The notes under the pieces: model-generated
Databases searched by the model: none
What the model saw: the letters and a program-made list of their open reading frames with translations, nothing else
Told to the model about the DNA's origin: nothing
Position numbers and translations under genes: made by a program
Part shown: in pieces, positions 2,384-11,242 of the stretch
Numbering within the stretch: the stretch's first letter is position 1
Layout: every line of letters starts with the position of its first letter
Source of the DNA: a virus
Lineage: Duplodnaviria; Heunggongvirae; Uroviricota; Caudoviricetes
IMG/VR virus record: IMGVR_UViG_2657245509_000010
Strand: one strand, 5' to 3'
Length of the DNA stretch: 11,242 bases

Positions 2384-2404
2384 GATATGCGAACAGATAC
2401 AACG

Positions 2405-2443
2405 TGCAACAATGAGCAACAATGTGGAACAACTACGAACAAG
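2405..2443. repeat. Short tandem direct repeats (GCAACAATG x2, then GAACAAC and GAACAAG); candidate protein-binding array
   Basis: Read directly in the 364-bp int-alpA intergenic region. Confidence 0.5.
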
Positions 2444-2714
2444 AGGCGAAAAAGCGTACGGATTTATAAGTAGCTGATTTTTAATGTGTTACTGGTTTTT
2501 TATACACTAGCGAATCACTCTTTAAAGAGCGAGAAAAAAGGCATGGAACAATATTTTATGCCTTTGTATTAACATGAATTTAAAAGATTTTATTCTTACT
2601 TTTTCATTTTCTGTAAATCATACATCCTCAGTATTTGCCATTCATCACTCTAGCGGGAACAATACGACACAATAAGACACCTGATGACTCTTTAAGAAAC
2701 GAAAGGGGGCAATA

Positions 2715-2903: not shown

Positions 2904-3049
2904 TCACGCTGGCGGCACACAGCCGCCACACATCAATCATCTGAACACAGAGCTATAACCATGAAGATTGAATATACGCCAGAACGTGGGCGGGGATTCG
3001 TTCGCCCTGGTGAGACTGGAAAACCACAAAATTGGGGTTTTTCAGGCAT

Positions 3050-3078
3050 AAAAAAAGCGGCCCCGAAATGGAGCCGCC
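3050..3078 (-). terminator. Probable rho-independent terminator for minus-strand transcripts (GC stem then T7 on the minus strand)
   Basis: Plus strand 'aaaaaaagcggccccgaaatggagccgc'; on the minus strand a gcggc/gccgc stem is followed by TTTTTTT. Confidence 0.45.
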
Positions 3079-3172
3079 TTTCTGAACAGATAACCCGCTG
3101 CGCCTTATGTGTATATGATCCCAAACATAAGCACGGGGATGATAGCCGCTATCAGGCTGGTGGGCAATGCTA

Positions 3173-3361
3173 TCAGTCTGGTTCAGTTCGTTGCCATACC
3201 TGCAATGGGCGCGTTTCCCTGTACTCTTTAAGGAATTGCTCAAGGGCAAAAGCACATGGCGCGAATCTTTCTGATTCATGCTCTATCTTTCTGCGCCGTC
3301 TTTTCCGTGCCGGTGATAATGTTTTGGTCAATTCTTTATCGGTCATTGTGTTGTCCTGCAT
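3173..3361 (-). CDS. Hypothetical small basic protein, downstream of the RHH gene on the minus strand (start uncertain; possibly ATG at 3346)
   Basis: ORF-track ORF; arginine/lysine-rich segment 'ARKRRRRK'; no strong SD, so low confidence. Confidence 0.3.
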   Translation of the reverse strand: MQDNTMTDKELTKTLSPARKRRRRKIEHESERFAPCAFALEQFLKEYRETRPLQVWQRTEPD

Positions 3362-3403
3362 AGCAATGCGCCGTAATACCTCACACCACGGCGCTGATAG
3401 TTT

Positions 3404-3577
3404 TTATCCTTTGGGTTCTATGCCGCGTTGCTGTAATTCTTTGCGGAGAACGCGTTTAATCCAAGTGGCTAAAGATGTGTCGCCATCGGCCTTAGCAGCT
3501 TCTTCTAGCTGCGCTCTGAAGTCTTCCGGTAATCGCATTTGGTATGGAGGCGAACGTTTTTCTAATGGTGTTGACAT
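3404..3577 (-). CDS. Arc/MetJ-type ribbon-helix-helix transcriptional repressor (57 aa); not in the ORF track
   Basis: Minus-strand translation 'MSTPLEKRSPPYQMRLPEDFRAQLEEAAKADGDTSLATWIKRVLRKELQQRGIEPKG' fits the Arc-family pattern (beta-strand 'YQMRLP', then two helices). Divergent from the rightward operon, with palindromic operators at its 5' end. Confidence 0.75.
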   Translation of the reverse strand: MSTPLEKRSPPYQMRLPEDFRAQLEEAAKADGDTSLATWIKRVLRKELQQRGIEPKG

Positions 3578-3645
3578 GGTAATTACCCTTTATTGCTATA
3601 CCTACATGGTAATTACCATTGTACTTGCCATTACACAAAAATCAA
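3571..3645. promoter_or_regulatory. Divergent control region with two copies of the palindrome GGTAATTACC (3578-3587, 3608-3617) and a minus-strand promoter (-10 TACAAT 3618-3623, -35 TTGATT 3640-3645); a perfect TTGACA on the plus strand at 3571-3576
   Basis: Both palindromes are preceded by 'ACAT' and are 30 bp centre-to-centre. One abuts the RHH start codon and the other abuts the putative -10, the classic autorepressor layout. The plus-strand -10 is weak. Confidence 0.6.
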
Positions 3646-3707
3646 CGCCCCGCAGTGCTGGGAACACATACGGGGCGTCTAACCAACAACGTAAACTAGG
3701 AGCCGTT

Positions 3708-3905
3708 ATGGTTGCCGTAAATCATATACCACACCTTGTACACACACAAACGGCCTTTGTGTGGCGTTTTCTGGCACTGAGTGCCGGAGAATCTCAAATC
3801 ATCCACGTAACCGCCTGGACGGAACGCGAAGCGCGTAACCGTTGCCCGTCCGGTTGTGTTGCTGTATTTGCCGCCCGTATTCGTCAGGAGGTGCGCCATG
3901 ATTAA
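3708..3905 (+). CDS. Icd-like (host cell division inhibitor-like) small protein, 65 aa
   Basis: 'FVWRFLALSAGESQIIHVTAWTEREARNRC...VFAARIRQEV' resembles the Icd-like proteins of enterobacterial P4-like and PICI elements (from memory). RBS 'aggag' 6 nt upstream. It is the true gene inside the chimeric 314-aa track ORF. Confidence 0.6.
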   Translation: MVAVNHIPHLVHTQTAFVWRFLALSAGESQIIHVTAWTEREARNRCPSGCVAVFAARIRQEVRHD

Positions 3906-4795: not shown

Positions 4796-5095
4796 ATGAA
4801 ACTTAAATATTCTGGCTTAACTGCCAGTGGCAACACTCACCCTAAATTTACGCGCGGTGATATTTACCGCGACCAGTACGGCGGCACGGTAATGATTAAG
4901 GGCGTGGAAGAACGGCGCGTAACCTACCGCCGTGAAGGTTACGAATATGATTGCGTGATGCCTGTTTATCAGTTCCGGCGTGATTTTTCTCTGGTACAGA
5001 CCGCGCCGCATAACGTGCCCACCAGCAACGCCAGGGCACGGGCAAACATCCAGAAGCTGAAAACCATGGTTAACGGATTCAGGGGCAAGAAATGA
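4796..5095 (+). CDS. Hypothetical protein (99 aa)
   Basis: SD 'ggaga' about 10 nt upstream; stop overlaps the start of the replication ATPase gene. Confidence 0.6.
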   Translation: MKLKYSGLTASGNTHPKFTRGDIYRDQYGGTVMIKGVEERRVTYRREGYEYDCVMPVYQFRRDFSLVQTAPHNVPTSNARARANIQKLKTMVNGFRGKK

Positions 5096-6492
5096 AAAGC
5101 GCACCGAACTTAAAAAAACAGCCTTACGACAAGATGACCGAAGTCATTATTTTTGCGGGTAGTGATGCCTGGGCACATGCGAAACAGTGGCAGGAACAGG
5201 ACGGGCGACTGGCTGGCGATAATGTGCCTCCCGTTGTGCTGGCTGATGATCAACTGGATGAACTGGCAGAACTGAGAATCATCGACGAGGGGCGCTATTG
5301 TGTCCGGCTGTACAAGGCAGGCCACATCAGGCCATCAAATATTAATGCCATTGCGCACAAGCTGGCGGCGGCGGGTGTAACTGATGCGAATTATTACCCC
5401 GAAGGGATGCACAGCCATATGCGGGAGAACTGGCGCGAATACCTGGAACGGGTGCGCGGGAAAGAGCCGGCGGAAGAAAAAAACCACCAGCGAAAAACCA
5501 CGCTACCGATGAGCGTTGGATCTACCGGATACGACACGCAACTGGATTACGTGGTTAAGGGGATTATTCCGGCGGTATCGCTATGCAGCATATACGGGGC
5601 TAGCGGGTCCTATAAATCATTCCTTGCCGGATCGTGGGCGTGCCATGTTGCCACTGGTCGCCAGTGGGGAGGCCGCAGGGTTGCACATGGTGCGGTTCTC
5701 TATGTGGTTGGTGAAGGCGGTATAGGTGTTCCGCGTCGTGTAAAAGCCTGGGAGGTTGTGCACGATGAGCAGGTGAAAAATCTGTATCTGGTAAACCGCC
5801 CCATCTTTCCGGCTGCCCCGCTTGATGTTGATGAAATGGTTATCGCTGCCCGTCAGGTGGAGCGGGAAACGGGTAAACCTGTACGCATGATTATTCTGGA
5901 TACGCTGGCGCGTTGCTTTGGTGGGAATGATGAAAATGATTCCCGTGATATGGGGGCGTTTATCCGTGGTTGTGACGAACTGAAACGACGCACAGGGGCC
6001 ACGGTGCTGGTGGTTCACCATTCCGGCAAGGATGAGACGAAAGGCGCGCGCGGTTCCAGTGCATTTCGTGCTTCGCTGGATGCTGAATACCGGATACGCA
6101 GGGAGGACGCAGGAAGCGAAGCGCTGGTTATCTCATGCACCAAAATGAAGGACGCGGAGGAACTCAAAGAAGCCGCATATGACTTACGCGTGGTGGAGCT
6201 TTTTACCGACGCTGACGGTGAATTAATCACGTCGCTGGTGGTGGTGGATGATCCGCGCCCTCCTGTTGAACTGGAGCGCATCGAGGAGGCAGGGAACAAG
6301 ACGGAAAACCATACCGCGCTATGGGGGTGCATCCGTTCACGCACACAGAACGGCGACAAGTGCACGATCCCGCTGTTACGTGATGACATGAAAAAGCTGG
6401 GGTATGAAATGAAAAACTTCCGGCGCTGGCTGTACAAGCTGGAAAAAGATGGGGTTATTCGTATCGATGGGGATGATGTAGCGCCGCTATAA
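5092..6492 (+). CDS. RepA/DnaB-like RecA-fold replication ATPase (satellite replicase-helicase) with a probable C-terminal winged-helix domain
   Basis: P-loop-like 'GASGSYKS', Walker-B-like 'MIILDTLARCFGG', and 'VLVVHHSGKDETKGARGSSAFRASLDAEYRIRRE' typical of RepA-like helicases; C-terminus 'WLYKLEKDGVIRI' looks wHTH-like; an iteron array lies immediately downstream. Confidence 0.8.
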   Translation: MKSAPNLKKQPYDKMTEVIIFAGSDAWAHAKQWQEQDGRLAGDNVPPVVLADDQLDELAELRIIDEGRYCVRLYKAGHIRPSNINAIAHKLAAAGVTDANYYPEGMHSHMRENWREYLERVRGKEPAEEKNHQRKTTLPMSVGSTGYDTQLDYVVKGIIPAVSLCSIYGASGSYKSFLAGSWACHVATGRQWGGRRVAHGAVLYVVGEGGIGVPRRVKAWEVVHDEQVKNLYLVNRPIFPAAPLDVDEMVIAARQVERETGKPVRMIILDTLARCFGGNDENDSRDMGAFIRGCDELKRRTGATVLVVHHSGKDETKGARGSSAFRASLDAEYRIRREDAGSEALVISCTKMKDAEELKEAAYDLRVVELFTDADGELITSLVVVDDPRPPVELERIEEAGNKTENHTALWGCIRSRTQNGDKCTIPLLRDDMKKLGYEMKNFRRWLYKLEKDGVIRIDGDDVAPL

Positions 6493-6692: not shown

Positions 6693-6944
6693 ATGACCCA
6701 AAAACGCAGAGACAGAACAGAGCCAAAATATAAAGCGTTAGACATGACTGAGCACACCTTAAAGGTGGCAATCAGAACGATAGACCGCCACACGCGGGAA
6801 GGATACGCGAAGGAACATCCCGACCTGATAAGCGCATTCATGACCACGGCGGCGGCAAACTTTGCCACGCTGACAGAACGGGAGATTGCCGAAGCGGAAC
6901 AGGTAACAACCATCAACGTTAAAACCGGAGAGGTGGAATTATGA
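6693..6944 (+). CDS. Hypothetical protein (83 aa; alternative GTG start at 6663)
   Basis: ATG with SD 'gagagg'; the upstream in-frame extension would overlap the iterons. Confidence 0.5.
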   Translation: MTQKRRDRTEPKYKALDMTEHTLKVAIRTIDRHTREGYAKEHPDLISAFMTTAAANFATLTEREIAEAEQVTTINVKTGEVEL

Positions 6945-7351
6945 CGGCACAGATAGCCGCTTACGGGCGGCTGGTGGACGACCCGCAGGTAAAACAGACC
7001 AGCAAGGGCACACCGATGACGCTGGCGCGTATGGCGGTATCTTTGCCATGCAGCCAGGCACAGGACGGACAGGCGACGTTATGGTTATCGGTCATCGCAT
7101 TTGGCAAACAGGCCGGCTTCCTGGCTAAACATCAAAAAGGCGATGTTGCCAGCGTATCCGGCACGATGCAGGTAAGCCAGTGGACCGGACAGAACGGAGA
7201 AACGCGGCAGGGCTGGCAGGTTATCGCAGACAGCGTAATCAGTGCCCGCGCGGCACGTCCAGGCGGGAACAGACGCAAAACCACAGGCACACAGGGTAAT
7301 CAGCCACCAGCGGGAGGCGATGACCCTTACGGTGATGATATTTCGTTCTGA
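6941..7351 (+). CDS. ssb: Single-stranded DNA-binding protein (SSB-like OB fold with acidic C-terminal tip)
   Basis: Glycine/proline-rich linker and C-terminal 'DDPYGDDISF', comparable to E. coli SSB '...DDDIPF'; OB-fold-like N-terminus; start overlaps the upstream stop. Confidence 0.75.
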   Translation: MTAQIAAYGRLVDDPQVKQTSKGTPMTLARMAVSLPCSQAQDGQATLWLSVIAFGKQAGFLAKHQKGDVASVSGTMQVSQWTGQNGETRQGWQVIADSVISARAARPGGNRRKTTGTQGNQPPAGGDDPYGDDISF

Positions 7352-7361
7352 GGGGGTGACG

Positions 7362-7634
7362 ATGGTACATGACCGCATAGCGGAGGAACTGGAGGCGAAA
7401 GGCTTTTACCGGAGGGCGGCGGCGCGATGGGGTGAAGTCATGCAGCTGGTGGAGACAGACAAGGAACGGCATCACATCACGATGCGACGGCTGGAATGTT
7501 CAAGGAAGGCACAGAGGGCACCGGAGCCGCCGGATAATTTCGGAGACCTGAAAAAGGCAGTCGATCGCACTTATGCCGAAATGGGTATAGATGGTGCTGG
7601 TGATGAAATATGGCGCAATTACCAGGACAGCTAA
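7362..7634 (+). CDS. PerC-family transcriptional regulator-like protein (90 aa)
   Basis: 'AEELEAKGFYRRAAARWGEVM' matches the PerC/Pch hallmark (LExKG-W/Y-RRAA-xW). The true start is the ATG at 7362 with SD 'gaggggg'; the longer track ORF (7242-) would overlap ssb. Confidence 0.6.
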   Translation: MVHDRIAEELEAKGFYRRAAARWGEVMQLVETDKERHHITMRRLECSRKAQRAPEPPDNFGDLKKAVDRTYAEMGIDGAGDEIWRNYQDS

Positions 7635-7640
7635 TCAAAC

Positions 7641-7664
7641 AGCCGGAGAAATCCGGCTTTTTTT
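7641..7664 (+). terminator. Rho-independent terminator (GCCGGA-GAAA-TCCGGC then T7)
   Basis: Stem-loop plus T-run directly after the perC-like stop. Confidence 0.8.
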
Positions 7665-7760: not shown

Positions 7761-7985
7761 ATGCCGATGAAATTTGATGAGATATTAAAACAGCGTGATA
7801 AATACCATGCTGACAACATGGAGACGATGAGCATCAATGATTACCGCGCATTCCTGGAGACGGGCGCACTGATTGAAAAGGATCAGCATGGTTTTGTGAG
7901 ATGTGCTCTATCCGGTGAAATGCTGGCGGTAAATCCTGAACAGATAGATGCATTGATAGAATTTCTGAAAGAGATCAGAGACTGA
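7761..7985 (+). CDS. Hypothetical protein (74 aa), an isolated transcription unit
   Basis: SD 'gagga' upstream; flanked by terminators at 7641-7664 and 8005-8075. Confidence 0.55.
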   Translation: MPMKFDEILKQRDKYHADNMETMSINDYRAFLETGALIEKDQHGFVRCALSGEMLAVNPEQIDALIEFLKEIRD

Positions 7986-8004: not shown

Positions 8005-8027
8005 AGCCGGAGCAATCCGGCTTTTTT
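8005..8027 (+). terminator. Rho-independent terminator (GCCGGA-GCAA-TCCGGC then T6)
   Basis: Variant of the same hairpin as at 7641 and 10278. Confidence 0.75.
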
Positions 8028-8033
8028 GCGCCC

Positions 8034-8075
8034 AAAAAAAGCCCGATAAGGTCAGAGGGTTCTTATCGGGCTTTT
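8034..8075. terminator. Second hairpin, possibly bidirectional (A7, 10-bp stem GCCCGATAAG/CTTATCGGGC, T4)
   Basis: Read directly; A-run upstream and T-run downstream. Confidence 0.6.
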
Positions 8076-8148
8076 GCATATGAGGTTTTTGGATGCACTG
8101 GCGTTCGTGATCGGGATAATCATTTCATAATTTGCAACATAACTCAAT

Positions 8149-8201
8149 ATCATTGCATAAAATGCAATTCTGATTATAATCAGGACTGGATAAACATCCA
8201 G
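8149..8201 (+). promoter_or_regulatory. Putative promoter of the capsid operon (-35 TTGCAT 8153-8158, 16-bp spacer, -10 TATAAT 8175-8180) embedded in three consecutive palindromes
   Basis: Palindromes ATTGCAT-AAA-ATGCAAT, CTGATTATAATCAG (contains the -10) and CTGGAT-AAAC-ATCCAG; first promoter-like signal after the double terminator. Confidence 0.55.
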
Positions 8202-8236
8202 TTATGATTTTTTTAGTCGAAGAGGAATTTCTTACT

Positions 8237-8443
8237 ATGGCTGAAGAGAAAAAAAGCGGTGTTTCGGTGTACATAAGCCCCGAAATCGTGGAGGTGCTCA
8301 AGCAGCGCCACAAAAAAAACTATGAAGCTGGCGTTGCGGCTGGACTGGATCCGCTGATGACGCCGGAGCCGTCGATAGGTTCACTTGTACGCTCTTATTT
8401 ACTTGCGGCGCTTGGGATGCATAAAAATTATGGGGGTGAATAA
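8237..8443 (+). CDS. Hypothetical protein (68 aa) translationally coupled to the major capsid gene (alternative start 8204)
   Basis: Stop and start overlap as TAATG at 8441-8445; position corresponds to where scaffold or head-accessory genes sit in head operons. Confidence 0.5.
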   Translation: MAEEKKSGVSVYISPEIVEVLKQRHKKNYEAGVAAGLDPLMTPEPSIGSLVRSYLLAALGMHKNYGGE

Positions 8444-9498
8444 TGGCAGGCAAAGCAACGGCACTTAACACTAACCAGCTTTTCATGTACCTGAATCGCG
8501 GGGATATTGCGGATTTTAAATTCAGCCCTCTGTTTACCACGCTGTTTTTCCCGAACGTGGCGACATTCAGCACGCAAAACATCATGCTGGATACCCTGGA
8601 CATTGAAGAAGTCACCATGTCGGCGTTTTGTTCGCCTATGGTGGGTAGCCAGGTTCAGCGCGATAAAGGGTACGAAACCAGCACAATCAAACCTGGCTAC
8701 ATGAAGCCAAAGCACGAAATCGATCCAACGAAAACCATCATGCGCATGGCTGGAGAAGATCCGGCACAGCTTAACGACCCTACCTATCGCCGTATGCGCC
8801 TGATTACTGGCAACATGCGCCGCCAGATAAACGCCATTAAGGCACGCGTGGAATGGCTGGCGGTGAATGCGGTAACGACCGGAAAAAACATCATTGAGGG
8901 CGAAGGCATAGAACGCTATGAAATCGACTGGAAAATACCGGAAAACTGCATCATAGAGCAGGCCAAGGGTAAAAAATGGTCCGAGCAGGATAAAGACATG
9001 CACGACCCAATCTATGACATCGAGCTTTATGCTGATCAGGCTGGTTGCCCCGCAAACGTCATGATTATGGGCGCTGAGGTATGGCGCACATTACGCAGCT
9101 TTAAAAAATTCCGTGAGCTGTACGATCTTTCCCGTGGTTCAGAATCCGCCGCCGAACTGGCCTGTAAAAACCTGGGCGAAGTGGTGAGCTTTAAAGGCTA
9201 TCTTGGTGATCTGGCCCTTATCGTCTATTCCGGCAAATACACTGACAGCGATGGTACCGAAAAATATTTCCTTGAGCCTGATTTGCTGGTCCTGGGTAAC
9301 ACCAACAATAAAGGGCTGGTGGCCTATGGTGCGATAATGGATCAGGAAGCGGTAAGAACGGGCGCAACACAAAACATGTTTTACCCGAAAAACTGGATTG
9401 AGGACGGCGATCCGGCGATTGAGTACGTGCAGACACACAGTGCACCGCAGCCGGTACCGGCAGATATTCGCAAATTTGTTACCGTCAAAATTGGTTAA
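8443..9498 (+). CDS. Major capsid protein, lambda gpE-like (HK97 fold family)
   Basis: Blocks 'KFSPLFTTLFF', 'PGYMKPKHEIDP', 'DPTYRRMRL', 'FRSFK', 'YPKNWIEDGDPAIEY' align with lambda gpE 'KFDPLFLRLFF', 'PGYVKPKHEVNP', 'DPAYRRRRI', 'FRSFK', 'YPKNWVTTGDPAREF' (recalled sequence). 351 aa against about 341 aa for gpE. Confidence 0.9.
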   Translation: MAGKATALNTNQLFMYLNRGDIADFKFSPLFTTLFFPNVATFSTQNIMLDTLDIEEVTMSAFCSPMVGSQVQRDKGYETSTIKPGYMKPKHEIDPTKTIMRMAGEDPAQLNDPTYRRMRLITGNMRRQINAIKARVEWLAVNAVTTGKNIIEGEGIERYEIDWKIPENCIIEQAKGKKWSEQDKDMHDPIYDIELYADQAGCPANVMIMGAEVWRTLRSFKKFRELYDLSRGSESAAELACKNLGEVVSFKGYLGDLALIVYSGKYTDSDGTEKYFLEPDLLVLGNTNNKGLVAYGAIMDQEAVRTGATQNMFYPKNWIEDGDPAIEYVQTHSAPQPVPADIRKFVTVKIG

Positions 9499-9510: not shown

Positions 9511-9846
9511 ATGGACACTCCATACATTGAGTTATTTGCAGGCAGTCAGCAGGTATCCACGACGTTGGTACATTTTGCCGCTGATGCTGGCGTTATTCAG
9601 GAATTTACCCCGCTGATGCTGGCAGACAATGGCGAGTTTAAGCCGTGGGATGGTCAGGAATCTGGCAAGGCTGTTTATCTGACCTCGTACCCTGTGGACA
9701 CGTCAAAGCAGAAATCAGCACAGTGTTACAAGACGGGGATATTCAATATTGCCGCCGTTAACTGGCCTGAGAGCGTCGACACCGATGCGAAAAAATGCGC
9801 CGCCTTTGCGGGTTCCGGCGTATCCGTTCAGCCGCTGGCCCGATAA
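9511..9846 (+). CDS. Head decoration protein, lambda gpD-like
   Basis: 'TPLMLADNGEFKPWDG...KKCAAFAGSGVSVQ' aligns with gpD 'TPLMLDTSSRKLVAWDG...KKRTAFAGTAISIV'; 111 aa against 110 aa. Confidence 0.85.
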   Translation: MDTPYIELFAGSQQVSTTLVHFAADAGVIQEFTPLMLADNGEFKPWDGQESGKAVYLTSYPVDTSKQKSAQCYKTGIFNIAAVNWPESVDTDAKKCAAFAGSGVSVQPLAR

Positions 9847-9858
9847 GCAGGGGGAACG

Positions 9859-10272
9859 ATGGCAACGAATGAAAGCATCATGACGCTACCGCTGGCGAGT
9901 AAATTTAAAGTCGAAGCGCGGGCAATGGCTGACAGAGGTTTATCAACCTATGAGGCCGTATATCAACTAAACAAACTGGAAGAGCAGGACAAGCCGTGCG
10001 CTGATGCGATTATGGCGCTTCATGAGCATAAAGACTATCAGCCGCTGTTGCGTGCAATGGCAAACGTGCCTTGTATCGATGTTGGTACGGCTAAAAGCAT
10101 CCTTAGCATGACCATAGAGCAGGAACGTCCGAAGGTTGCGCCGGAACTTACCGCAGCCTTTGAAAACTTTATGGACATGCACAGCCCGCAAGCCGTATCA
10201 GCTGGCATGGCATACGATGGCAGAAACCAGGGCGATGACGGCGACATCGATCGCATACTGAAAACCATCTGA
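9859..10272 (+). CDS. Hypothetical protein (137 aa) between the decoration gene and cos
   Basis: Good SD 'aggggga'; no resemblance to lambda FI/FII by eye. Confidence 0.6.
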   Translation: MATNESIMTLPLASKFKVEARAMADRGLSTYEAVYQLNKLEEQDKPCADAIMALHEHKDYQPLLRAMANVPCIDVGTAKSILSMTIEQERPKVAPELTAAFENFMDMHSPQAVSAGMAYDGRNQGDDGDIDRILKTI

Positions 10273-10277
10273 GACAA

Positions 10278-10300
10278 GGCCGGAGAAATCCGGCTTTTTT
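10278..10300 (+). terminator. Rho-independent terminator (GCCGGA-GAAA-TCCGGC then T6), third copy of the hairpin family
   Basis: Immediately 5' of cos. Confidence 0.8.
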
Positions 10301-10368
10301 ACGGGTCCTTCCTGGAATTATGGCCCGTTACGGGGCGGCGACCTCGCGGATTTTCGCTATTTATGAGC
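10301..10368 (+). other. cos site (cosQ-cosN), lambda-like; predicted 12-nt cohesive end GGGCGGCGACCT at 10333-10344
   Basis: 'acgggtccttcctggaattatggcccgttacg|gggcggcgacct|cgcggattttcgctatttatga' against lambda 'ACGGGTCCTTTCCGGTGATCCGACAGGTTACG|GGGCGGCGACCT|CGCGGGTTTTCGCTATTTATGA' (from memory); located about 135 bp upstream of the Nu1-like gene. Confidence 0.85.
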
Positions 10369-10477: not shown

Positions 10478-11020
10478 ATGAAATCTCATCTGATGAACAA
10501 AAAAAACATGGCGAAAAGCTGCCGTGTAAGTGCGACAGCGTTCGACAAGTGGGGAGTAACTCCCGTTGAGCGTAAAGGCCGTGAGGCGTTTTATGATGTT
10601 GCCAGCGTGATAGAAAATAGGGTTAACAATGCAATTAGCCAGCTTATAAACGACAAAGGCGAGATTGACGATGATGAACTTTTACGAGTCAGGATCAGAT
10701 TACTGACAGCACAGGCAGAGGCGCAGGAACTTAAAAACGATCGCGATCGCGGTGACGTGATTGATACTGAGTTTTGCCTGTACGCGCTTTCAAAGCTGGC
10801 GAGTCAGATTTCATCAATCATGGACAGCCTCCCGCTTACTATGCAAAGGAGCTTCCCACAGATTACCCCCGCCATGCTGGACAGGCTTAAAAGGGAAGTG
10901 GTTAAAGCCTGTAATGCCAGTGCCAGAGTTGCCGACAACCTCCCACAGATACTGGCTGATTACTTGAAAGAAACAACCGGAAACGTACCGGAAAAGTTGC
11001 TACAGAAGAAAGGCGAGTAA
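10478..11020 (+). CDS. Terminase small subunit, lambda Nu1-like
   Basis: 'LTAQAEAQELKNDRDRGDVIDTEFCLYALSKLASQISSIMDSLPLTMQRSFP' aligns with Nu1 'LTRAQADAQELKNARDSAEVVETAFCTFVLSRIAGEIASILDGLPLSVQRRFP'; N-terminus 'NKKNMAKSCRVSATAFDKW' against 'NKKQLADIFGASIRTIQNW'. 180 aa against 181 aa. Start may be the ATG at 10493. Confidence 0.9.
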   Translation: MKSHLMNKKNMAKSCRVSATAFDKWGVTPVERKGREAFYDVASVIENRVNNAISQLINDKGEIDDDELLRVRIRLLTAQAEAQELKNDRDRGDVIDTEFCLYALSKLASQISSIMDSLPLTMQRSFPQITPAMLDRLKREVVKACNASARVADNLPQILADYLKETTGNVPEKLLQKKGE

Positions 11021-11039: not shown

Positions 11040-11242
11040 CAAAAATGAGAAAGGATCTGATAATGGCATTTTCTGGCTAAAATGCCTCGTGTCAGATCCT
11101 TTCTTTTTTTAATATTTTCATTGTTAAACAGTCTGTTACAGAGAAGAAGATCGGATCTGACTTTTGCCGGAAAATTCTCATAAACAGATAAAAACCGCGA
11201 GGTCGCCGCCCCGTAACGGGCCATAATTCCAGGAAGGACCCG
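11040..11242 (-). other. Second cos site in inverted orientation (cosN reverse complement at 11200-11211) with a full-length lambda-like cosB arm; cosQ part is the terminal repeat
   Basis: Reverse complement reads 'cgggtccttcctggaattatggcccgttacg|gggcggcgacct|cgcggtttttatctgtttatgagaattttccgg...tcttcttc...', tracking the lambda left end 'CGCGGGTTTTCGCTATTTATGAAAATTTTCCGG...TTCTTCTTCG' further than the 10301 cos does. Confidence 0.8.
11048..11110. terminator. Nested inverted repeat AGAAAGGATCTGA...TCAGATCCTTTCT followed by T7; likely terS terminator and, on the other strand, lambda-like cosB R2/R1-type sites
   Basis: 13-bp arms at 11048-11060 and 11093-11105 with an inner GGCATTTT/AAAATGCC hairpin; the reverse complement aligns with the lambda cosB region 'GAAAAGAAAGGAAACGACAGG...CCTCTGTCGTTTCCTTTCT'. 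Confidence 0.6.

Follow-up and report, generated by a model that had tools for sequence, protein, structure and literature searches.

A predicted LexA-gated sigma-70 promoter at the head of the capsid cassette of an EcCICFT073-type phage satellite from Escherichia coli O157:H7

The 11,242-nucleotide virus record IMGVR_UViG_2657245509_000010 of IMG/VR (Caudoviricetes), hereafter the window, comes from E. coli O157:H7 and represents a phage-inducible chromosomal island (PICI) of the EcCICFT073 type. We analysed the intergenic region ahead of its cassette of capsid genes, where three perfect palindromes, here called P1, P2 and P3, lie close together between 8131 and 8236 and where P2 encloses a TATAAT hexamer. 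The reading that we favour, with a probability of about 0.6, is that this region is a sigma-70 promoter of the capsid cassette with an operator for the host repressor LexA over its start site, that the promoter would be released by the SOS response, and that further dimeric regulators would act on it. The region is the head of an autonomous, terminator-bracketed transcription unit, since its distance to the first cassette gene, orf68, is fixed, terminators stand on both sides, and the corresponding genes of strain CFT073 (c1498-c1501) are co-regulated without a helper phage.

Results

Three palindromes and a predicted sigma-70 promoter

P1 (ATTGCATAAAATGCAAT, ATTGCAT-AAA-ATGCAAT) occupies positions 8152-8168, with 7-bp arms around a 3-nt centre. 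P2 (CTGATTATAATCAG) lies at 8170-8183 and consists of two 7-bp arms with zero spacer, and P3 (CTGGATAAACATCCAG) lies at 8186-8201, with arms of 6 bp that become 7 bp when it is read as ACTGGAT/ATCCAGT at 8185-8202. An earlier reading made from the sequence alone, the sequence-only reading, had pointed out these three palindromes, and they are present exactly at the positions that it gave. Their density is unusual: with arms of at least 6 and spacers of at most 4, the 106 nt from 8131 to 8236 hold 3 distinct perfect palindromes, and dinucleotide-preserving shuffles hold 0.22 on average, three or more being reached in 7 of 5000. The same reading had placed a TATAAT inside the 14-bp palindrome, which we confirm, the hexamer at 8175-8180 falling within P2; five perfect TATAAT hexamers occur in the whole window, both strands counted.

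Homologous regions were gathered from nine E. coli genome variants, from 80 IMG/VR contigs found through the capsid protein, from 77 contigs found through the promoter pattern and from three Salmonella islands found through distant orf68 homologues; they include 53 distinct E. coli versions of the region. In this set TATAAT is invariant apart from TAAAAT in one relative, and it carries the A at position 2 and the T at position 6 that are expected of a sigma-70 −10 hexamer. Upstream of it, on the same plus strand, the predicted −35 hexamer TTGCAT (8153-8158) matches the consensus at three of six positions and its TTGC is invariant; P1 covers this hexamer together with half of the spacer. The 16-bp spacer is constant in about 50 E. 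coli variants and in the three Salmonella relatives. From this geometry we infer promoter activity with transcription starting at 8187-8189, 7-9 nt past the −10, so that the predicted promoter is TTGCAT-16 bp-TATAAT with a start near 8188. The Shine-Dalgarno sequence AGAGGA (8221-8226) and the ATG of orf68 at 8237 follow on the plus strand (8221-8239), as indicated by the annotated start and by conservation.

The consensus promoter scan was run with a threshold of four matches in six, hence TTGCAT was not flagged. Its only promoter call, TTCATA-18-TATCAT at 8124-8153, was rejected, the −10 being lost in many variants and in Salmonella. Several other candidate features of the region were discarded in the same way. 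The ATG at 8204 becomes GTG or is deleted in relatives, a minus-strand ORF (open reading frame) of 33 aa (8153-8052) loses its start codon in them, and the sigma-dependent pause element TATGAT at 8203-8208 is not conserved, its key A being lost in many variants. A long-range helix of the 5' untranslated region, in which the U-run would pair with the A-rich beginning of orf68, is part of the fold predicted for the window and is gone from the consensus fold. Motifs for sigma-54, Fur, NsrR, ArgR, DnaA, PhoP, IHF and lambda CII, compared by eye, did not fit.

Palindrome P3 matches the LexA box of E. coli

The sequence of P3, CTGGATAAACATCCAG, has the form of an E. coli-type LexA box, a 16-bp dyad CTG-N10-CAG with an A/T-rich centre. 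With its flanks (GACTGGATAAACATCCAGTT, 8184-8203, about −2 to +14 of the predicted promoter) it was scored with a heterology-index matrix built from the 18 documented boxes of PMC3009722 Table 4. The 20-mer has an index of 6.26, within the range of 0.27-9.29 of the documented boxes and close to the values of ruvA (CGCTGGATATCTATCCAGCA, 6.54), uvrB (6.62) and cho (5.70). In 2 Mb of random sequence of window or AT-rich-spacer composition, zero sites were as good as P3 (6.3 or better). The arms of P3 are those of the ruvAB SOS box CTGGATATCTATCCAG (PMC3009722 Table 4).

This match is maintained in relatives. All 50 distinct E. coli versions score 5.2-9.2 and Salmonella 6.7, and a box with an index of at most 9.2 is kept in 168 of 171 locus copies, a count that includes repeat fetches of some contigs. 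The arms of P3 are kept, and variation is located in the centre and in the flanks of the box; a recurrent CCAG-to-ACAG change disrupts the dyad yet approaches the LexA consensus. The predicted box overlaps the predicted start site and ends 35 nt ahead of the ATG, and an overlap of this kind is usual for the LexA boxes of genes that depend tightly on LexA (PMC8072944). P3 is thus probably a binding site for host LexA, through which the cassette would be switched on by SOS. In a literature search we found no paper that ties EcCICFT073-type islands to LexA; in the papers searched that mention EcCICFT073, LexA occurs only in reference-list citations concerning operon I of the staphylococcal pathogenicity islands (SaPI), and a wider search on PICIs and LexA yielded nothing of relevance.

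A second LexA-box-like site, TAGTGTATAAAAAACCAGTA, was noticed on the minus strand at 2490-2509, between int and alpA. Its index is 4.99 and one of its half-sites is GTG instead of CTG; it lies about 170 nt upstream of the alpA starts inferred from strain EDL933. It is conserved in the island of CFT073 and in the capsid-forming island of EDL933 (also at L001 3076-3095 and L090 2199-2218). alpA has been reported as unresponsive to SOS.

The predicted promoter core is conserved and travels with the capsid module

The constrained block is a 96-nt core, from 8119 to about 8214. This core is 79-80% identical to Salmonella, compared with 69% for the capsid gene (46% at third-codon positions) and 45-55% for the 100 nt upstream. 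It stands 84 nt before orf68 in all 77 contigs, though the genes upstream differ: PerC is present or absent, the replicases differ, and an integrase is found there in Salmonella. Many E. coli genome matches to the capsid module begin at 8035, at the foot of the second of the two terminators that precede the promoter. The capsid module from 8035 recombines freely with different upstream modules, and its regulators should therefore be host-encoded or encoded within the module.

The sequence-only reading had proposed an operator-controlled promoter of the capsid operon. Constrained dyads at a fixed distance before the cassette, and a core conserved above its flanks and above synonymous sites, agree with this part of the proposal, but the operator that can be identified matches those of host LexA. 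That reading had also set the promoter directly after a double terminator; two terminators do lie upstream, but they are not adjacent, the −35 lying 78 nt past the second hairpin.

The three dyads are not constrained alike. In P1, the arms ATTGC/GCAAT and the string AAAATGCAA are conserved across relatives, the inner two pairs vary without compensation and positions 8157-8158 vary freely; one Salmonella relative has a G...C outer pair, which gives the symmetric form GTTGC...GCAAC. Of P2 only the 12-bp core TGATTATAATCA (8171-8182) is kept, its outer pair 8170/8183 being unconstrained (AU 21, CG 12, other 17). A further element, box 1 (ATCATTTCATAATTTGCAAC, 8119-8138), lies 30 bp upstream of the P1 region, which it repeats in direct orientation and degenerate form; its centre falls near −58. 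Hardly any variation in box 1 is seen among 50 E. coli variants and in Salmonella. The box 1/P1 direct repeat has only two copies in the window, where 0.02 are expected, and neither the alpA promoter nor any other part of the island carries the motif.

When the region was compared by blastn with 50,697 phage records, only chance matches came back, and the region is therefore not borrowed from a helper late promoter. A peptide-pattern scan of species-representative genomes with the capsid protein found no relatives.

Several observations weigh against a LexA-gated promoter. The −35 hexamer has only half of the consensus matches, and the sole map of transcription starts at this chromosomal site was made in EDL933, where the late module is another one. 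The divergent E. coli variant L007 lacks the box and variant L054 has a 1-nt insertion in its centre, and both retain P1 and P2, so LexA control is not universal. c1498-c1501 are expressed in uninduced cells, and repression is therefore not tight. P1, P2 and box 1 are conserved as strongly as P3, which the LexA model does not explain, and the model gives no account of the conserved T-run and ATGATT motif past P3.

With these points taken into account, we propose that host RNA polymerase with sigma-70 would start at about 8188 from TTGCAT/16 bp/TATAAT, and that LexA on P3 would hold the promoter down in the undamaged cell. Repression would probably be leaky, since the box, like those of ruvA and cho, belongs to the weaker CTGG...CCAG type. 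DNA damage, which cleaves LexA and induces lambdoid helper prophages, would release the cassette at the same time. P1 with box 1, and the P2 core, would most likely bind one or more further dimeric regulators, host- or module-encoded; these remaining two dyads and box 1 would mark at least one more regulator, or an RNA. For P1/box 1 we favour a host factor or orf68, because the motifs are absent elsewhere in the island and from phages, PerC is often absent, and the capsid module is swapped between backgrounds. The orf68 product might conceivably be a ribbon-helix-helix (beta-alpha-alpha) autoregulator.

Other proteins that could bind P1 and P2

Among host factors, P1 could be a CytR-type operator, and the P2 core TGAT-N4-ATCA a site for the CRP/FNR family over the −10. 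Two TTGCAT cores make up P1 (TTGCAT-AAA-ATGCAA), whose conserved right half, AATGCAA(T/C), is complementary to (A/G)TTGCATT, agreeing at 7-8 of 8 positions with GTTGCATT, which we take to be the CytR octamer of published SELEX (in vitro selection) work. The right half of the Salmonella P1 is the exact complement of this presumed octamer. TTGCAT/ATGCAA cores are found in the CytR-controlled deoP2 and udp promoters of E. coli K-12, P2 agrees at 8 of 10 positions with what we take to be the FNR core, and the module swapping favours host factors. In known CytR promoters such as deoP2, however, strong CRP sites near −41 and −93 enclose or adjoin the operator, and no flanking CRP sites are found at P1; the symmetry of P2 is partly imposed by TATAAT itself; and the biological logic of such control is unclear. 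We consider the CytR/FNR assignment quite unlikely.

The sequence-only reading had suggested a late promoter whose operators respond to a helper- or satellite-encoded regulator of PerC or AlpA type. We considered with it a loading site between −35 and −10 like those of lambda Q or of Pseudomonas aeruginosa AlpA, with a terminator downstream. In its favour, AlpA activates EcCICFT073 genes (PMC6092414). The AlpA of P. aeruginosa loads between −35 and −10 and reads through a terminator just ahead of the first gene (PMC7969949); here the conserved right arm of P1 stands at the position of that loading site and a terminator-like hairpin stands ahead of orf68. Most of the evidence does not support the suggestion, which we regard as very improbable. 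P3 matches a box for host LexA, PerC is absent from many islands that bear this promoter, and the P1/box 1 motifs do not recur at the alpA promoter. The same core lies behind unrelated upstream modules, including those of Salmonella; the phage search gave no phage with similar DNA; and expression of c1498-c1501 has been seen without a helper. Nor can the hairpin terminate the promoter's own transcript, as its left arm is situated upstream of the predicted start, and the −10-like TATGAT at 8203-8208 is the motif whose key A is lost in many variants. As an antitermination loading site of Q or AlpA type the region was rejected: nothing fits beyond the position of the conserved P1 right arm, the pause element is unconserved and the terminator is partly outside the transcript.

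RNA structures as alternatives

The hairpin just mentioned is an extended dyad, AATCAGGACTGGAT/ATCCAGTTATGATT (8178-8209), followed by a run of seven T (8178-8214 in all, plus strand), and it is terminator-like only in transcripts begun upstream of 8178. It could stop only read-through transcripts, because its left arm is upstream of the predicted start. An insulator or attenuator would use it as a third intrinsic terminator, formed by the dyad and the T-run at 8208-8214, to stop what leaks through the two upstream terminators. The right arm of P2, AATCA, has two possible pairing partners, its own left arm and ATGATT at 8204-8209, giving alternative structures, and transcripts from the cassette's own promoter would lack the left arm and hence escape. 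The proposal is compatible with LexA control. The consensus scan marks the site as terminator-like. The extended hairpin folds at −15.3 kcal/mol in the window, −17.7 in CFT073 and −14.1 in Salmonella, and across E. coli and Salmonella the fold lies between −14 and −18 kcal/mol with z of −3.9 to −6.3. ATGATT followed by the T-run is conserved out to Salmonella, the pair 8183/8204 occurs as UA 20, CG 4, GC 2 and UG 3, and a 1-nt insertion in the loop is tolerated in L054. However, that same pair is mismatched in 21 of 50 variants, two strong terminators already stand upstream, and a transcript containing the whole hairpin has no conserved promoter, TTCATA-18-TATCAT being the one whose −10 is so often lost. 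The dyad symmetry of a LexA box yields a hairpin anyway. An insulating function is a doubtful proposal, albeit a tenable one.

A second RNA-level alternative starts from the symmetry of TGATTATAATCA, by which TATAAT is present on both strands. A bidirectional promoter could produce a hypothetical minus-strand RNA of about 134 nt (8034-8167), running leftward from the symmetric −10 to the second terminator, T2; it would start near 8166, open with a P1/box 1 helix and end at T2. Such a leftward RNA would also be under LexA, P3 covering its −35 position, and it is compatible with the LexA-gated rightward promoter. T2 presents a long minus-strand U-run in every lineage despite three unrelated hairpin sequences, that is, a sequence replaced twice, and T2 travels with the capsid module. 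In the E. coli lineages the predicted RNA would measure 132-137 nt (147 in CFIA511) and in Salmonella 134-135 nt, even with linkers and hairpins of unrelated sequence. On the minus strand, box 1 and P1 can form a 17-pair, G.U-rich helix, for which standard pairs fill 85% of the cells, vs 68% on the plus strand; one U.G pair of the helix is invariant, and its pair 8151/8139 occurs as AU 13, GU 12 and GC 9. The RNA would also explain the strong conservation of the asymmetric box 1.

Against this RNA, the minus-strand −35 is poor (TGGATG or CTGGAT, no TTG), and an Rfam search of the whole window at E ≤ 1 gave zero matches. The comparison between strands is biased, the helix having been taken from folds of the minus strand, the sequences compared are closely related, and a bidirectional terminator at a module boundary requires no dedicated RNA. 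We hold a bidirectional promoter to be unlikely, and a shade less likely still the fuller proposal that a LexA-gated bidirectional promoter drives, besides the capsid cassette, a leftward RNA (8167 to 8034, about 134 nt) that is conserved and would be a hitherto undescribed SOS-inducible small RNA of Gram-negative satellites. If it existed, this RNA would possibly act on the helper phage or on the cassette itself.

Terminators around the cassette

The first terminator, T1 (8005-8028, plus strand), consists of the hairpin AGCCGGAGCAATCCGGCT at 8005-8022 followed by T6; it ends the gene at 7761-7985 and folds at −12.5 kcal/mol with z of −3.7. T2 (8034-8079) has a hairpin at 8037-8075 with a 14-bp stem and −21.7 kcal/mol. 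It carries A7 on its left (8034-8040) vs T4 on its right, and is thus stronger for minus-strand transcripts. Its hairpin sequence is replaced in CFIA511 and in Salmonella, and the minus-strand U-run is kept. T2 is mainly a minus-strand terminator and marks the left, recombining boundary of the capsid module. At the far end of the cassette a plus-strand terminator at 10279-10300, the hairpin GCCGGAGAAATCCGGC followed by T6, closes the unit ahead of cosN and the Nu1-like rpp.

A near-identical hairpin, GCCGGAG(A/C)AATCCGGC, occurs three times in the window, at 7641-7658 after perC, at 8005-8022 after the 74-aa ORF and at 10279-10294 after the scaffold-like ORF, which suggests a terminator unit reused at module junctions. 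In the islands elppa4 and BEC1 (L004 and L006, about 1310-1480), an insertion of about 170 nt, made of a GC-rich hairpin and an AT-rich stretch, separates the first terminator from the second; the promoter module is unaltered there.

The island and its gene order

The window is 100% identical to a chromosomal segment in many E. coli O157:H7 genomes and homologous to EcCICFT073, the prototype Gram-negative PICI, with its insertion site between roxA and phoQ. It is assigned to the EcCICFT073-type PICIs because this identity and homology, the roxA-phoQ site and the gene content all fit. It encodes the integrase (1121-2350), AlpA (2715-2903), a DUF4222 protein of 99 aa known as RgdR among small ORFs (4796-5095), a RepA/AAA_25 helicase (5092-6492), SSB (6941-7351), PerC (7362-7634) and the 74-aa ORF (7761-7985), the last gene before the intergenic region studied. 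The capsid cassette follows on the plus strand with orf68 (8237-8443), a lambda E-like major capsid protein (8443-9498), a D-like decoration protein (9511-9846), the latter two identified by Pfam/PHROG matches, and a Nu3/scaffold-like ORF of 137 aa (9859-10272), previously unannotated, 3' of the decoration gene. The Nu1-like Rpp/TerS gene (rpp) lies at 10478-11020.

For the product of 9859-10272 there is a match to a PHROG family of head maturation proteases, phrog_53 (E 4.7e-9), in the C-terminal portion that corresponds to Nu3/scaffold. The cassette comprises homologues of capsid, decoration and scaffold proteins, without portal or protease. In E. coli, orf68 has two alleles, with about 98% and about 78% DNA identity to the window, and the same promoter core stands ahead of both; the Salmonella versions carry a Gly/Ala/Asn-rich N-terminal insertion. 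The orf68 family is limited to Escherichia and Salmonella and has no Pfam match.

An exact search of the window for cosN, GGGCGGCGACCT, found it only at 10333-10344 (plus strand) and 11200-11211 (minus strand), which ruled out a cos site at the palindrome region. These two exact lambda-type cosN, in opposite orientations, flank the Nu1-like rpp and are the cos1 and cos2 of EcCICFT073.

The DUF4222 ORF at 4796-5095 has a TRGD motif at residues 19-22 and fits the published description of the RgdR/ECs1581 family. This family, of 99 aa with an RGD motif that includes R20 and with an orthologue in CFT073, is a prophage regulator of LEE type III secretion (LEE, locus of enterocyte effacement) and of motility, from O-island 51 (PMC3378721). 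A plus-strand ORF of 314 aa at 2940-3905 overlaps a RefSeq Icd-like pseudogene stretch, partly unannotated, and is probably not a real gene; further perfect palindromes lie inside this stretch, at 3140-3154 and 3606-3619. A tRNA search of the window found none.

Discussion

One of the closest known systems is EcCICFT073 (Fillol-Salom et al. 2018, 2019), which shares the architecture and the integration site of the window; the cassette there is c1498-c1501, followed by cos1 and rppA, and the intergenic region is about 88-90% identical. On the CFT073 chromosome (NC_004431) the region occupies 1385208-1385461, with the predicted −10 at about 1385400-1385405, the predicted start at about 1385412 and the predicted LexA box at 1385409-1385428. 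It differs in having a primase where the window has a RepA-type helicase, and the window has an additional ORF, placed between perC and the promoter. No description of this promoter came up when the text of the 2018 and 2019 EcCICFT073 papers was searched. In the published view, AlpA, induced by an unknown helper signal, turns islands of this type on, and published work has reported neither a phenotype nor a regulation for the capsid-like c1498-c1501. In CFT073 these genes rise together upon a shift from 23 to 37 °C, without helper induction (PMC12890032).

In EDL933 this attachment site is occupied by the capsid-forming island EcCIEDL933, whose late promoter is unrelated and has no LexA box. 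Cappable-seq places a start of the EcCIEDL933 capsid gene at 1687918, and of 8 uninduced conditions 7 showed it active. Close upstream of this start are three GTTGTTC repeats (L090 8380-8419; NZ_CP008957 about 1687879-1687918), which mirror the GAACAA repeats of the int-alpA spacer (window 2400-2445); the two sets may represent a shared AlpA or Int binding site.

Among known LexA boxes, those of ruvAB and cho (ydjQ) are close to P3, with CTGGAT...ATCCAG or CTGG...CCAG arms and similar indices, and the ruvA 16-mer differs from P3 at only three of the four central bases. Those boxes serve chromosomal DNA-repair genes, whereas P3 stands on a mobile-element capsid cassette beside two more dyads.

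Bidirectional promoters that arise from −10 symmetry have reportedly been described in E. coli by Warman et al. in 2021. The symmetric TGATTATAATCA could likewise serve both strands, with divergent starts about 21 bp apart. It differs by its 2-bp hexamer offset, which we take not to be the commonest class, and by a leftward transcript that is hypothetical.

A further close system is operon I of the SaPIs, which encodes packaging and capsid remodelling functions and is LexA-controlled according to Ubeda et al. 2007, as cited in PMC5052747 and PMC6092414. Both are morphogenesis/interference modules of a satellite, placed downstream of the replication module, with a promoter of their own and control by host LexA, predicted in the present case; expression would in both cases be tied to the signal that induces the helper prophage. 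The island studied here differs in its Gram-negative host, in its E. coli-type CTG-N10-CAG box, in the few variants without a box, and in its gene content, homologues of lambda E, D and Nu3 instead of cpmAB, pti and terS. Its LexA control is, moreover, predicted from sequence only. We infer here a LexA-gated morphogenesis operon of a phage satellite, of a known kind and now in enterobacteria.

If this is true, the LexA operator would be a second, helper-independent input to genes of the c1498-c1501 type. Host SOS would pre-arm the satellite homologues of capsid, decoration and scaffold proteins as lambdoid prophages are induced, in the manner of SaPI operon I. The stand-alone architecture of the cassette would be explained, and mitomycin C and lexA alleles would provide a handle on the role of these orphan capsid genes. 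LexA control of satellite morphogenesis would then extend from Gram-positive cocci to enterobacteria.

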